A DNA stretch of 64,000 nucleotides. Origin: a virus. Where the stretch lies: positions 1-64,000 of IMG/VR virus record IMGVR_UViG_3300025929_000013. The stretch is one strand, 5' to 3'. The notes beneath the pieces are model-generated. The model did no database searches and had not been told where the DNA came from. It saw nothing but the letters and a program-made list of their open reading frames with translations. Position numbers and translations under genes: made by a program. The number at the start of each line of letters is the position of its first letter. The first letter of the stretch is position 1. Positions 25,699 through 31,477 of this stretch are shown one piece after another.

Positions 25699-26123
25699 GC
25701 CGGATCACCTGGACGCCCGACAAGACCCTGAAGACCCGTGTCGTCGGCACGATCAACGAGGCCGTCGTCGCCCGGATCCTCACGATCGACGGCACGGAAT
25801 ACAGCCTCTGCTATACCAACGGTCTGCACGCCGGATTCGCCGACTTCACGACGTTCGAGGCCGCGCAAGAGGCGGCCGAGGAGCTAATCAACGCCTTCCT
25901 GGAGAAGATCGACGCGGACTTCCTGCCCGACGACGTCGTAGCGCTCATCAAGGACCTGCGCGCGGCCGGAAAGAACATACCGGGGCCCGCGGCGTGCGCG
26001 CGCGGCGAGAACGACCGGATGTGGGGCAGGGCCGTCCAACGCGCGAGCTACGGTACGTACCAGGCGCCCGCAGAACCCTCGGGCCCCATAGCCGACCCTG
26101 CGCCGAAAAAAGACACGCCATGA
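25695..26123 (+). CDS. hypothetical protein (ITW paralog)
   Basis: ATGA coupling. Confidence 0.65.
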   Translation: MSRITWTPDKTLKTRVVGTINEAVVARILTIDGTEYSLCYTNGLHAGFADFTTFEAAQEAAEELINAFLEKIDADFLPDDVVALIKDLRAAGKNIPGPAACARGENDRMWGRAVQRASYGTYQAPAEPSGPIADPAPKKDTP

Positions 26124-26268
26124 GGTGGTGGCCGCGCTGCCGCTACTGCAACAAACCGGTGCGCTGGCGGCACCTGCTGCACATGTTCTGCTACCACGGC
26201 ACGACGACGCACTACAGGTGCGAGCGCAAGATGCGGCGTGACGTGTTCGGCGTCCCCGAAGGCATGAG

Positions 26269-26619
26269 ATGACAGAACCCGCACAACCGCCCGCGCGGCC
26301 TCTCGTGGTCATCCCGATCAAGACCCGCAAGCCCGAGAAGTGGCGCTGGCACGATCTGGAGACCGGCGAGATCTGGCGCTGGCACGACGGGTGCTTCAAA
26401 CGGGAGCCGCCGTGGCCGAGCGCCGACTACGCCACCCAATGGCAGGTGCTGATCGGCTACGCCCAGCAGACCCGCGACGACGGCGAGAAAATCGAGCCCG
26501 CCGAGCTGCTTGAGCTGCTCGTCGAGCTGCGCCGCGAGGCCCTTCGGCCTGTCAAAGAGTGGATGGACGGGGTCGTTGACGGCTCAACGAATACGGATTC
26601 GAGCACGTCGCAGGGCTGA
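26269..26619 (+). CDS. hypothetical protein
   Basis: ORF track, coupled. Confidence 0.65.
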   Translation: MTEPAQPPARPLVVIPIKTRKPEKWRWHDLETGEIWRWHDGCFKREPPWPSADYATQWQVLIGYAQQTRDDGEKIEPAELLELLVELRREALRPVKEWMDGVVDGSTNTDSSTSQG

Positions 26620-26810
26620 GCGTTACTCCGAACGGGTTAACTGCTTCTCAGGCTGTACACGAACATGTTCCAGCGGGTAATGTCTTCCCCGCAGCACCCG
26701 GAAGGAAATCAGCCGGGTGATATGCAACCCGCCTGCGCGCACAGGCCACCATCTGTGTTTCCAGCTCAGGCGGGTCATATTCCTCGCAAGCCCTTGAGAG
26801 GGGGTGCAGC

Positions 26811-29036
26811 ATGCCCATCATCAGCCCTGGAAATCAGGAGTCGAACGCCGACGGCGCCATCGAGCTTCGGATCGCCGCGGATATCGATGAGACGACAGGC
26901 TGCACCTTCTCCGCCACGGGCCTGCCCGACGGGCTCGAATTCGAACGCAAGAAGTTCGAGGATGACGAGGAGCACACCTGGCAGACCGGCCGCATCATCG
27001 GAACTCCCAAGCGCGCCGGGATTTACCAGGTCACGGTCACCGCGATCGACAAGGCCGGAACCAAGACGACCGCGTCCTTCGTGTGGACCGTCTGCGCCAT
27101 GCGGGCGTACAGATTCGCACTGGACCTAAGCGACCCGCAGATCACGGCCATGCAGCAGCACGCGGGCACCGCGCGGTGGGCCTACAACAAGGCGCTGGAA
27201 GCCAAGGTCAACGCCCACAGGGCGTACACCGAACGGCTCAAGGCCCTGCTCGCCTCTGGACTGACGCCACAGCAGGCGAAGGCCCAGATGAAAAAGGAGA
27301 GCGCGGCGCTCAAGGCGCAGACCGCGATCTGGGAGCACCACCGCCAGTGCCTGACCGCCATGAACCTGGGCAGGGCACTGCCCGCCAAAACACCGCGCGG
27401 ACCGCAGGAACTGATCGACGACCTCGCCGCGATCCGGGCGATGGTGCCCGACGGCGTCGACCCCGCGCTGCTCACCCTGGTGGGCAACTGGAAGGGACAG
27501 CCGCCCACGGCGCTGTGCTGGGCGCGCGACCGCCACGAGGCACGCCAGAAGTGGATTAAAACCCACCTCGTCATGGCGCGCCAGACCGTCACGCACCTCA
27601 AGCAGCAACTGTTCGACCTCGGCGACACGATCCCCAACATGATCGAGAACCTGGCGAACTGGCGCAACACACGCGACCTTCCCAAGGAAGAGGGCGGCTC
27701 GCCGTGGTGGCAGGAGGTCAGCTCCTACGTGTTCTCCGGCGGCATGGGCCGCGCGGACGCCGCGTGGAGCAACTGGCTCAAGTCCCTCAGCGGACAGCGC
27801 GCCGGTAAAGCCGTCGGATACCCGCGGTTCAAGAAGCGCGGCCAGTGCGCCGACTCGTTCCCGCTCTTCCACGACGTCACCAATCCATCGATACGCATCG
27901 AGGGATACCGGCACCTGCGCCTGCCGAATATCGGAGAGGTGCGCGTCCACAACTCCGGGCACCGCTCCGGTACACGCAACCGCGTCACCGCGACCAACGC
28001 GAAGGGCGTCAAGCGCACCGTCAGCGGCCAGAGCAAGGGCCGCCTCGGTTCGACCAAGCGCCTGGTGCGCATGATCGAGCGCGGCGACGCGATCGTGCAG
28101 TCCGTGACCGTCGTGCGCGGCGGACACCGCTGGTATGCCAATGTCCTGGTCAAGCTCACCCCTGAGGCGATGCGCCAGCGTGAAATGGTGGCGCGCGCCC
28201 ATCAGAAGGTCTCCAAGAAGCGCGCCCAGGGCCGCGGGAACGTCGGCGTCGAGTGGGGTGTGCGCACCCTGGCCACCCTCTCGAACGGGGAATCGTTCGC
28301 GAACCCCAAGCCGGGCAAGAAGAACCAGCGACGCCTGCGCGTCGCGTCCCAGAAGGTCAGCCGCAAACCGCACAAGCGCGGCCAGCCGATCTCCGCGAAC
28401 CGCGCGGCGGCGATCCGCCAGCTCGGCAGGGTCCACCACGAGATCGCCGAGACGCGCAAGGGCAACCACCACCAGATCTCCGCCGCGATCTCGCTCGGCT
28501 ACCGCGGCGTCGCCGTACGGGGCCTGGACGTGAAGTCCATGACCAAGTCAGCGAAGGGCACGGTCGAAAAGCCCGGCAAGCACGTGAAGGTCAAGTCGAC
28601 CTTCAACCGCGCGGCCCTGGACGCGGCGCCGGGCATGCTGCAAAACCAGATCAGCTACAAGACAACCCAGTACGGCGCGAAATTCGGGGTCGCCCCGAAG
28701 GACCTGCCGTCCAGCCAAACCTGCTCAGCGTGTGGGTGGCGAGATCCAAGCATCCCCCTGACGCAGATGACCTTCCGGTGCGGAAACGTAGAGTGCGGCA
28801 AGAAAATCGACCGCGAGGTCAACGCCGCACGCAACATCCGCAACTCAGTATTTCCCGTGGCCTCAGACAGTGGGGACACGTTAAACGCCTGCGTAGATGG
28901 CATAGGACCCCCGGGCAGCCGAGGGCAGCCGTCGCCAAAACAGGAAGACCCCGAGCCCCATCCCCCACCGGAGGATGGACCCGCGGAGGGTCATTCCGGG
29001 GAAGCGATTCCCCGGCGTTCTCACACCCCGGGCTGA
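26811..29036 (+). CDS. tnpB: TnpB/Cas12-like RNA-guided protein, predicted nuclease-dead, with N-terminal putative Ig (He_PIG-like) domain
   Basis: MRAYRFAL...HAGTARWAYN.AL (IS605 OrfB HTH), GYPRFKK, LRLPNIGEV, RuvC-I VGVEWG, RuvC-II VAVRGL, Zn ribbon CSACG...CGNVECG, RuvC-III DREVNAARNI; N-terminus FSATGLPDGL...GRIIGTP..AG.Y.VTVTA.D. Confidence 0.9.
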   Translation: MPIISPGNQESNADGAIELRIAADIDETTGCTFSATGLPDGLEFERKKFEDDEEHTWQTGRIIGTPKRAGIYQVTVTAIDKAGTKTTASFVWTVCAMRAYRFALDLSDPQITAMQQHAGTARWAYNKALEAKVNAHRAYTERLKALLASGLTPQQAKAQMKKESAALKAQTAIWEHHRQCLTAMNLGRALPAKTPRGPQELIDDLAAIRAMVPDGVDPALLTLVGNWKGQPPTALCWARDRHEARQKWIKTHLVMARQTVTHLKQQLFDLGDTIPNMIENLANWRNTRDLPKEEGGSPWWQEVSSYVFSGGMGRADAAWSNWLKSLSGQRAGKAVGYPRFKKRGQCADSFPLFHDVTNPSIRIEGYRHLRLPNIGEVRVHNSGHRSGTRNRVTATNAKGVKRTVSGQSKGRLGSTKRLVRMIERGDAIVQSVTVVRGGHRWYANVLVKLTPEAMRQREMVARAHQKVSKKRAQGRGNVGVEWGVRTLATLSNGESFANPKPGKKNQRRLRVASQKVSRKPHKRGQPISANRAAAIRQLGRVHHEIAETRKGNHHQISAAISLGYRGVAVRGLDVKSMTKSAKGTVEKPGKHVKVKSTFNRAALDAAPGMLQNQISYKTTQYGAKFGVAPKDLPSSQTCSACGWRDPSIPLTQMTFRCGNVECGKKIDREVNAARNIRNSVFPVASDSGDTLNACVDGIGPPGSRGQPSPKQEDPEPHPPPEDGPAEGHSGEAIPRRSHTPG
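28857..29025 (+). ncRNA. putative omegaRNA/tracr-like scaffold overlapping the 3' end of tnpB
   Basis: Sequence after NAARNI resembles actinobacterial TnpB right-end scaffolds (TTAAACGCC...GGAAGACC...GGGTCA) and ends in the hairpin CCGGGGAA-GCGA-TTCCCCGG (28996-29015). Confidence 0.5.
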
Positions 29037-29080
29037 TTGAAAAATCAACAGTGGATGCGCATACGCGCAGGTCGCACAGT

Positions 29081-30529
29081 GTGCGCCCCGCGGGCGTGTG
29101 GAATGGTCGCACGCTCCACCGGTGGTGAGGGACGTGAGTACGTGCGCCCCGCGGGCGTGTGGAATGGTCCGCACCGTTCCTCGACCACGCATGGGTCGCG
29201 CCGTGCGCCCCGCGGGCGTGTGGAATGGTCGTAGTGCAGTACGGCGAAACAGCCCGCTAGAGCGTGCGCCCCGCGGGCGTGTGGAGCGGTCGACGGCGTC
29301 AGTGCGGTGGCATACATAGTGGCGCTGCGCCCCGCGGACGCGTGAGACGGTCATCGGTAAGCTGACTTCCCAGAGCGCGTGAAATGGGCGCCCCGCGGAG
29401 CGTGGAACGGTCGCAAGGATGCTTACTCGGCTCCTACTGAAGGCCGTGTGCCTTGCGGGCGCGTGAGACGGTCCATCCACCCAGATGACGAGCGAGCAGA
29501 AGCCCAGGTGCGTGGAATGGTTCGGGGACTCCAATTGGTAGGAGCCAACAAGGGTTTCCCCCGCGGGCGCGTGAGACGGTCGTGACGGCAGTCGTTATGG
29601 CACAGAGTCCGCATAGGCGCGTGGGATGGTCTCAGACTCACGTATTACAGCCAGGCCGCGCAGCGGAGTGCGCCCCGCGCACACGTGAGGCGGTTCTGAC
29701 GCAGGGCGTTGAGTCACCCCGTGCACACAGAGAACGGTCCGCCTGGTGGGCGGTGGCATGAGTTGGGAAATTATGTGCCCCGCAGATGCGTGAGACGGTC
29801 GGGTCGAATGTCCATGGTTGTGGCGCAGGTCGCACAGGGTGCGCCCCGCGAGCGCGTGGGACGGTCGTGAAAATACCAGCAGGGCTTTGACCGAGGGCAG
29901 TGCGCCCCGCGGGCGCGAGGAATGGTCGACCCGTCTGGGCTGCTGTCCGTGGACAGCAGCGTGCAGCCCGCGGGCGCGTGGGTCGGTCTGAGTCAGGAGG
30001 CCACGATGGACGCTGTCGGCGGTGCGCCCCGCGGGCACGTGGGTCGGTCGTTTGAGTCCGAAGGAACCGCCCGATGAACGTCGTGCGCCCCGCGAGCGCG
30101 TGGGTCGGTCGGATCTACATGGACCAACCGTACAGACGGAGCGGTGCGCCCCGTGGGCGCGTGGAACGGTCGTGGCCCGGTCGCGTAGGCGGCGCAGGTC
30201 GCACAGGGTGCGCCCCGCGGGCGCGAGAAATGGTCGGTTACGTACGACAGGTCACCCATCAACAGCAGGTGCGCCCCGCGGGCGCGAGAAATGGTCGTGG
30301 TGTAGGGTGCCCGCACTCGAACACTGCGAGTGCACCCCGCGGGCGCGAGAAATGGTCGGAAGAGCTCTCGGTTGATACTGTCCCCCTGCGTCTGCGCACC
30401 TCGGGTATGCGCGGGACGGTCAGAGTGCCAGTGAAAGTTCTCGTCAACGTTCTGATGCTCCCCGCGGGCATGTGGAACGGTCCAGGTATGCTGCTGGTCA
30501 GATACACCCCGTGCACACCGGGAACGGTC
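29081..30529 (+). CRISPR. CRISPR array with type I-E-derived 28-bp repeat (consensus about GTGCGCCCCGCGGGCGYGTGGAAYGGTC), about 25 repeats, mostly 33-nt spacers
   Basis: Repeats start at 29081, 29142, 29203, 29264, 29325, 29386, 29446, 29554, 29668, 29773, 29839, 29900, 29961, 30022, 30083, 30144, 30208, 30269, 30330, 30394, 30455 plus degenerate or truncated copies; 61-bp period; unique spacers. Confidence 0.93.
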
Positions 30530-31395: not shown

Positions 31396-31470
31396 TGCGG
31401 GGTAGCGCAGCTCGGTAGCGCGCTGGGCTCATATCCCAGAGGTCGCTCGGTTCAAATCCGGCCCCCGCTA
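31396..31470 (+). tRNA. tRNA-Met (CAT), initiator-type
   Basis: Cloverleaf; anticodon arm CTGGG-CTCATAT-CCCAG with three G-C pairs; 1:72 mismatch; TTCAAAT T loop; no encoded CCA. Confidence 0.88.
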
Positions 31471-31477
31471 CAGCAAC

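Follow-up and report, generated by a model that had tools for sequence, protein, structure and literature searches.

An Ig-like domain precedes a predicted nuclease-dead TnpB core

Within the first 64 kb of the 108,847-bp IMG/VR record IMGVR_UViG_3300025929_000013 (this analysed DNA is called the window below; 66.7% GC), a soil phage record with a completeness of 100% according to CheckV, one open reading frame (ORF) encodes a protein (P0001) in which an N-terminal immunoglobulin (Ig)-like domain of the He_PIG type is joined to a TnpB/Cas12-like protein with a predicted inactive RuvC site, and a CRISPR-like array follows downstream (Table 1). In the 741-residue protein, Pfam places He_PIG at residues 5-94, HTH_OrfB_IS605 at 98-135, OrfB_IS605, which corresponds to RuvC, at 467-580, and the Cas12f1-like TNB zinc finger at 608-676, and each of the three latter domains scores above its own Pfam cut-off. 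An earlier note, written from the DNA letters, had described the Ig-like domain as running into the TnpB core without a break, and the frame 26811-29036 is indeed open from end to end with no linker between the two parts.

The assignment of residues 1-96 to an Ig-like fold, also made in the earlier note, is supported by profile and by structure. Residues 5-94 match positions 6-95 of the 96 positions of the He_PIG profile (PF05345), with 49.6 bits and an E value of 5.6e-13 when residues 1-96 are scanned alone and with 44.5 bits in the context of the whole protein, the Pfam gathering cut-off being 24 bits. A six-frame scan of the phage genome gave 48.4 bits for this He_PIG and detected no second one in the phage. 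With residues 1-96 as query, 2112 proteins were retrieved at E<=1e-3 from a representative library of 1.84 billion proteins, and the top matches were giant proteins with 5-46 matched He_PIG repeats. The nearest solved structure by sequence comprises the two cadherin-like modules of the Staphylococcus aureus adhesin SraP (4m03, E 1e-7). Modelled alone with AlphaFold2 (AF2), the domain is predicted to form a seven-strand beta-sandwich with a predicted local distance difference test score (pLDDT) of 70.8, and Foldseek matched this model best to SraP (4m02/4m00/4m03; template modelling score (TM) 0.65-0.71, E down to 1e-6), followed by He_PIG-type accessory domains of Bacteroides glycosidases and Ig-like domains of dystroglycan. 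The best matches among predicted viral structures (BFVD) were tail-fibre, tail-collar and 'Ig' virion proteins (TM 0.59-0.68), and the ESM Atlas returned no usable match. Inspection by eye of the first 30 residues showed polar or acidic side chains and no hydrophobic stretch, in agreement with the lack of a signal peptide stated earlier.

In the RuvC part, the catalytic triad D/E/D is replaced by E481/R570/E669. The same E/R/E pattern occurs in all 16 closest relatives, within the motifs VGVEWGVR, R-[DGEQ]-[LI] and DRE[VIL]N, whereas the clades next to this dead clade have D/E/D or D/E/H. As active relatives retain D/E/D, the previous designation of the core as dead is upheld at the level of predicted catalytic residues.

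Table 1. Features of the Ig-TnpB gene and its surroundings, with positions in the window
Feature	Position	Strand	Remarks
Whole ORF: He_PIG domain and RuvC-dead TnpB/Cas12-like protein (predicted)	26811..29036	+	741 aa plus stop; no internal stops
N-terminal He_PIG / cadherin-like Ig domain, residues 1-96	26811..27098	+	Pfam match 26823-27092
TnpB core, residues 97-687	27099..28871	+	WED beta1, REC with large helical insertion, WED, RuvC, TNB zinc finger
RuvC positions E481, R570, E669	28251-28253, 28518-28520, 28815-28817	+	in TnpB core
Charged 11-residue loop RKKFEDDEEHT within Ig domain, about residues 46-56	26946..26978	+	from alignment
Basic beta-hairpin insertion in WED domain, about residues 380-415, GHRxGxR...GRxGS	27948..28055	+	from alignment and AF2
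Disordered C-terminal tail, residues 688-741	28872..29036	+	pLDDT below 50; its DNA overlaps the segment with the deepest RNA-library cover
Shine-Dalgarno-like GAGAGGGGGTG	26796..26806	+	ends 4 nt upstream of ATG 26811
CRISPR-like array	29081..30483	+	19 recognisable 29-nt repeats
tRNA-Met	31396-31471
Large serine recombinase, 642 aa	32428-34356		Resolvase and Recombinase domains, integrase type

Three diverged relatives have the same fusion

Relatives of P0001 were drawn from 5.8 billion protein clusters, and the search of these clusters revealed the same four Pfam domains in three further proteins, namely P0003 (736 aa, 69% identity, He_PIG 36.9 bits), P0004 (720 aa, 60% identity, He_PIG 43.1 bits) and P0005 (604 aa, 57-61% identity, He_PIG 43.6 bits). 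The earlier note had made its reading depend on whether any homolog shows the fusion; these three diverged proteins do, each with He_PIG above the cut-off and with the same junction. All four fused proteins have the junction at the same position, where two residues separate the final Ig strand, F-x-W/M-T-[VI], from the conserved RAYRF of the TnpB strand beta1. The Ig domains of the fused proteins were mutual best or near-best matches when set against 149 multi-repeat He_PIG proteins, and the Ig domain of P0003 was the top match for the Ig domains of all three other fused proteins. Together, the mutual best matches and the identical junction favour one fusion event.

A fifth sequence, P0002 (770 aa, from a 96,690-bp contig), is nearly identical to P0001, but its frame shifts past about residue 535 and continues into the array region. 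Either the assembly is faulty here or another assembly of this phage contains a broken allele, and P0002 was not counted as an independent fused relative.

Between the deeper pairs of fused proteins, identity amounts to 35-48% in the Ig domain and to 56-68% in the core, and the invariant Ig positions are mostly the fold-defining residues of the He_PIG family. From this pattern, the Ig domain looks like a part that is kept as a fold under a looser or shifting constraint. The charged loop RKKFEDDEEHT occurs in P0001 and P0003 only, being absent from P0004, P0005 and SraP, and is poorly modelled, with low pLDDT at residues 48-57 of the domain model.

A fresh Pfam scan detected no He_PIG in the non-fused relatives P0006 and P0010 or in the related protein of the IMG/VR record L002 (see below). 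When an alignment of the clade was used to scan contigs from viruses, metagenomes and genomes, all relatives retrieved were non-fused, and word-based searches with residues 1-140, at near and shorter lengths, yielded no additional forms, be they fused, split or stand-alone.

The E/R/E dead clade is monophyletic with 100% support in a tree built from the core by a quick IQ-TREE search. P0001, P0003 and P0004 form a clade (98%), the sister of which is the non-fused P0006 (97%), and the presence of the Ig domain requires two changes on this tree. Judging from the alignment and the tree, the Ig domain might either have been gained once and then lost in P0006, and possibly elsewhere, or have been gained twice; the fusion appears to have arisen once inside the dead clade. 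The N-terminus of P0006 reads MSEEETAEPGN and then directly TLRAYRF, and in the MAFFT alignment its PGN is paired with that of the Ig N-terminus. This PGN could be a deletion scar, for which the pairing is weak evidence.

Translation most likely starts upstream of the Ig-like domain

The nearest in-frame stop codon 5' of the ORF lies at 26718-26720, and because no ATG, GTG or TTG occurs in frame between this stop and 26811, translation of this frame cannot begin any further upstream than 26811. At this ATG the earlier note had seen a ribosome-binding site, and none at the internal ATG at 27099, and calculated pairing energies agree with it. The duplex of GAGAGGGGGTG with the anti-Shine-Dalgarno sequence reaches -18.4 kcal/mol, a stronger pairing than at the start of any of 24 further window genes (median -8.3), whereas the 20 nt before ATG 27099 pair with -3.0 kcal/mol, the mean of the in-ORF background being -3.8. 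In one and the same frame, the GC content at third codon positions (GC3) rises from 0.52 upstream of 26811 to 0.854 over the codons of the Ig domain and to 0.867 over those of TnpB. All four fused proteins share the aligned N-terminus M-x-[IL]-I-x-P-[GA]-[ND]. Residue 97 is Met in P0001 and P0005 only, and as P0003 and P0004 have Leu at this position, the internal start is not conserved. Against a start at 27099, which the earlier note had named as the outcome that would undo its reading, speak the Shine-Dalgarno pairing, GC3, Leu97 in two relatives and the RNA-library contigs described next, and initiation at 26811 is most likely.

The RNA evidence consists of assembled contigs with at least 99% identity from two rhizosphere metatranscriptome libraries of different studies. 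One contig (26699-26969) crosses the start codon and includes 112 nt of leader, another (26842-27147) crosses the junction between the Ig domain and TnpB, and the depth of both is about that of the rest of the ORF. The sole variant within the Ig domain, T>C at 26963, changes GAT to GAC and is synonymous (codon read by eye). In three rhizosphere libraries, one contig is composed of 28861-29080 plus 29142-29248, that is the 3' end of the gene and the first repeats, with depths of 27, 25 and 4 as compared with 2.4-5.7 over the body of the ORF. As its cover within these libraries exceeds that of the ORF body 5-10 times, this segment is hard to square with DNA alone.

Between 29080 and 29142, the deep contig lacks precisely one 61-nt unit of repeat and spacer. 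It could represent an abundant guide or scaffold RNA together with a strain that is one spacer shorter, or a collapse by the assembler. High-depth RNA contigs that touch just 26904-26936 belong to He_PIG genes of other organisms, with which the LPDGLEF motif is shared, and were set aside. RNA-library cover is absent from 26000-26698 and from most of the array after 29312, and neither gap was taken as evidence. The upstream intergenic region (26620-26810, 191 nt) has a lower GC content of 58.7%, and an RNA-library contig begins inside it at 26699; this region is likely the promoter or leader of the Ig-TnpB gene. A scan for sigma-70 promoters gave a single site, which overlaps the start codon and was judged implausible.

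The Ig-like domain is predicted to sit directly on the WED domain

The full-length AF2 model has a mean pLDDT of 86.2 and a predicted template modelling score of 0.82, and its best fold matches are TnpB (8iaz, 8h1j, 8exa; E down to 2e-18), Cas12p, Cas12f, TranC and Cas12m (8hhl, 8pm4). Block means of pLDDT for the Ig domain range from 75 to 94 in the full-length model versus 51 to 82 when the domain is folded alone. According to DSSP, a single strand of the model, residues 85-105, spans the junction, so that the last Ig strand enters WED beta1 with zero linker. In ISDra2 TnpB, the WED barrel includes residues 1-12 as its strand beta1, with N4 stacking against the first base pair between guide and target, and stem 4 of the omega-RNA is contacted by WED strands beta4 and beta5 (PMC10097598). 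By analogy, the modelled Ig domain would be rigidly mounted on WED, near that end of the R-loop which is proximal to the transposon- or protospacer-adjacent motif (TAM/PAM).

The basic hairpin insertion in WED is present in 4/4 Ig-fused proteins, whereas P0006 and all other aligned non-fused relatives, be they of the dead clade or active, lack it. AF2 predicts its strands at residues 389-395 and 401-407 with low pLDDT, and it probably enlarges the face with which WED binds nucleic acid. The isoelectric point (pI) of the Ig domain is 4.2-5.3 across the fused proteins (4.59 here, with a net charge of about -6) and that of the core 10.3-10.8. Because the Ig domain is acidic, direct binding of nucleic acid by it is unlikely. 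The charged loop RKKFEDDEEHT is a candidate lineage-specific contact site and would be the likeliest point of contact. When the Ig domain (residues 1-96) and the core (residues 97-687) were paired in a complex prediction, run without controls, the score was 0.00, a result that gives no verdict and weighs neither way.

The gene adjoins a repeat array and an integration module

The array starts 44 bp past the stop codon of the gene, mostly has a period of 61 nt with 32-nt spacers, and decays downstream into about 25 irregular mini-units that end in GAACGGTC and extend up to about 31310. A 15-mer, GCGCAGGTCGCACAG, stands before a repeat three times. Comparison of the spacers with the phage's own genome gave nothing significant, the longest exact match being 15 nt, and no match to a public phage collection was found for the array by blastn or for 20 kb of the window by megablast.

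Another array accompanies a non-fused member of the dead clade in the 202,490-bp IMG/VR record L002 (9965-13339), where a relative of 595 aa with 46% identity is followed, 33 bp past its stop codon, by a clean array of eight repeats (GTCTGGCCCGCGAGCGCACGGGAAGATCT) with the same 61-nt period. An ORF with a Cas1 domain (399 aa, 55.5 bits) lies directly after this array, and no Cas2 was detected in the ORFs tested at L002. In at least one jumbo-size phage, gene order thus associates the predicted dead clade with CRISPR. A further relative, L004/L009 from a metagenome-assembled genome of Actinomycetota, has three repeats after the gene that end in GGAACGGTC. The ORFs flanking the gene in L002 offered no partner candidate when compared with PHROGs and Pfam, and when the window ORFs were compared with L002 and L004 by tblastn, nothing around the gene except TnpB itself was syntenic.

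In the 108.8-kb phage genome, neither Cas1 nor a Y1 transposase (Y1_Tnp) was detected and the TnpB-like gene is single-copy. The large serine recombinase, 3.4 kb from the TnpB-like gene, is the only resolvase-domain gene in the phage. The adjacent TnpA and the several copies that would mark an IS200/IS605 or IS607 transposon are absent. The phage is probably temperate, with the dead-effector locus adjoining its integration module, and by gene content and predicted catalytic residues the protein is a single-copy, immobilised, array-associated dead effector of the integration/accessory region.

Discussion

We assign a probability of roughly 0.55 to the reading that the phage translates, and selection maintains, the He_PIG domain as a true N-terminal module of a nuclease-dead TnpB/Cas12-like protein that is paired with the downstream array. 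That the fusion as such is real and under selection is very probable from the sequences compared here. As the closest non-fused relative lacks both the Ig domain and the hairpin and as the dead clade and its arrays also occur without the Ig domain, the module is an add-on that lies outside the core RNA-guided machinery and is dispensable for the core fold.

The core would bind DNA by means of guides from the array without cutting it and thereby act as a roadblock resembling CRISPR interference. Because the locus adjoins a tRNA-Met gene and a large serine integrase, such a roadblock may serve in prophage-encoded exclusion or regulation. The Ig domain would then offer a protein-contact surface, fixed near the TAM/PAM-proximal end of the R-loop, which docks a phage or host partner on the DNA-bound complex, and the variable charged loop would be the likeliest site of contact with that partner. 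We put forward this docking role on the WED domain of a DNA-bound, non-cutting complex tentatively, with the odds somewhat against it. A further proposal, in which the Ig domain serves as an adaptor within the protein and links RNA-guided DNA binding to host RNA polymerase, a defence factor, another phage protein or the virion, is rather doubtful.

Several observations weigh against a selected module and, in particular, against one that docks a partner. Fused sequences number only four in 5.8 billion clusters and all are metagenomic singletons, their Ig domains have diverged to about the background level of the He_PIG family, and the fused P0005 falls into a basal polytomy of the tree. The RNA-library contigs prove neither transcription nor the 5' end, DNA carry-over being possible. 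Ten neighbouring ORFs are without PHROG or Pfam assignment and provide no partner candidate, and the zero-length linker and the co-occurrence with the hairpin suit a structural role within the molecule equally well.

Such an intramolecular role is the main rival to partner docking. The Ig domain would extend WED and buttress or charge-balance the basic hairpin, which would grip either the RNA handle derived from the repeat or the duplex on the TAM/PAM-proximal side, and no outside partner would be involved. The strand that continues over the junction without a linker, the more confident modelling of the Ig domain in the full-length protein than alone, the joint appearance and disappearance of Ig domain and hairpin, and the opposite charges of Ig domain and core all fit this proposal, as do the contacts of ISDra2 TnpB, in which beta4/beta5 touch omega-RNA stem 4 and beta1 lies at the start of the heteroduplex (PMC10097598). 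However, the Ig domain evolves faster than the core and its invariant residues are only those typical of the family, its acidity makes contact with nucleic acid improbable, and non-fused relatives keep arrays of 61-nt period without it, so that we consider an intramolecular role unlikely.

If the Ig domain were a neutral passenger, it would be the translated but functionless remnant of an accidental fusion, for example with a fragment of a tail-fibre or surface protein. P0006 has apparently dropped the domain with the rest of the protein intact, the family is tiny and its Ig domains diverge fast, and viral Ig folds occur mainly on tail-fibre and 'Ig' virion proteins, which are plausible donors. 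Yet a full-length He_PIG above the cut-off persists in four lineages whose cores differ at 30-44% of positions, stops and truncations are absent, fold-defining residues are conserved, and the gene has a dedicated strong Shine-Dalgarno sequence and GC3 at coding level, which makes a passenger quite improbable.

The Ig domain might instead mediate oligomerisation, in a pairing of effectors like that of the Cas12f dimer, or loading into the virion for delivery with the DNA; both had been suggested in the earlier note along with partner recruitment. Ig-like folds of phages are typically found on virion proteins, and Cas12f is a dimer where TnpB is a monomer (PMC10097598). As the phage has no second He_PIG to serve as a pairing mate, as the gene lies among small accessory genes by the integrase and not within a structural module, and as non-fused relatives manage without the Ig domain, these roles are highly improbable.

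That the Ig stretch is untranslated, the protein beginning at M97 (27099) and the upstream frame being open by GC-rich chance (67% GC), is hardly credible: there is an ATG at 27099, non-fused relatives start a few residues before RAYRF and long open frames are common in high-GC DNA, but this very frame encodes a significant He_PIG in the phage protein and in three relatives, two relatives have Leu97, 27099 lacks a Shine-Dalgarno sequence, and 26811 has the strongest one among 24 tested window starts together with a GC3 of 0.854.

Among known systems, the TldR proteins (Wiegand et al., bioRxiv 10.1101/2023.11.30.569447; PMC13622181) resemble the protein described here in being TnpB descendants with a disabled RuvC site, some of which are encoded by prophages. 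TldRs are thought or have been shown to bind DNA by means of a guide RNA and to block RNA polymerase sterically (PMC13622181). The phage protein differs from them in its array of several spacers with 61-nt period, its N-terminal Ig domain, its Actinomycetota-like host range and its replacement pattern E/R/E. Cas12m (type V-M), the inactivated type V effectors V-U24/43/44 and Cas12k are likewise TnpB-derived, accompanied by a CRISPR array and bind without cleaving double-stranded DNA (PMC10691335, PMC10442227), as the phage protein is predicted to do. Cas12m and its kin also have REC insertions relative to TnpB, as found here, but no Ig-like N-terminal domain has been reported for them, and 29-nt repeats with 32-nt spacers, a type I-E-like spacing, in a phage without Cas1 set the present locus apart.

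Precedents for a TnpB/Cas12-type function exerted through a docked second protein are provided by RpoE/sigma-E-associated dCas12f and by Cas12p-TrxA (PMC13472631; PDB 9jfs). Their partner is a separate polypeptide that docks on the effector's own surface, whereas the extra domain is present in cis in the phage protein. The Ig domains of S. aureus SraP (4m00-4m03), dystroglycan and glycoside hydrolases belong to the same family or fold and have the LPxGL and TGxIxGxP motifs in common with the fused domain; unlike these extracellular and usually tandem stalk or spacer modules of secreted proteins, it occurs as a single copy without a signal-like stretch and is fused to a core of the cytoplasmic, nucleic-acid-binding type. 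Virion Ig domains of phages, on tail fibres and decoration proteins, have the same general fold and are carried by structural proteins at the virion surface, whereas here the domain is part of a TnpB-like protein encoded in the accessory region by the integrase.

The earlier note knew of no RNA-guided protein with an Ig domain, and a full-text search of the literature for TnpB or Cas12 with an Ig-like or He_PIG domain likewise found nothing relevant. An Ig-like fusion is mentioned neither in the TnpB/Cas12 census (PMC10691335), in which helical accretions and a 'lid' domain are among the additions to TnpB/Cas12, nor in PMC13622181. We thus found no description of a predicted dead TnpB/Cas12-like effector with an N-terminal Ig-like accessory domain, an architecture that is rare, being represented by four sequences, and that marks a sub-lineage of a rare family of phage-borne, array-associated dead effectors.

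Dead descendants of TnpB and Cas12, such as TldR, Cas12m, Cas12k and sigma-E-associated dCas12f, dominate the current view of how nucleases are converted into regulators. To our knowledge, the dead effectors described so far all act alone by steric block or via a separately encoded partner. If the conserved cis-fused Ig module serves in protein contact, it would represent a third route, namely domain accretion, and a compact natural template for engineered effector fusions. If it is an adaptor, the protein would be the first TnpB/Cas12-type effector in nature to have an exchangeable protein-recruitment module fused to it, a natural 'dCas-fusion' of a temperate actinophage, whereas a merely structural Ig domain would make it a modest architectural curiosity.

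The nearest named TnpB clade (P0018, P0022-P0045) is from Streptomyces and Kitasatospora and has D/E/H with the RuvC-III motif HRHEN, and several of its members have G, A or H at the RuvC-I position. These chromosomal Streptomyces TnpBs may therefore possess a rearranged or decaying catalytic site.

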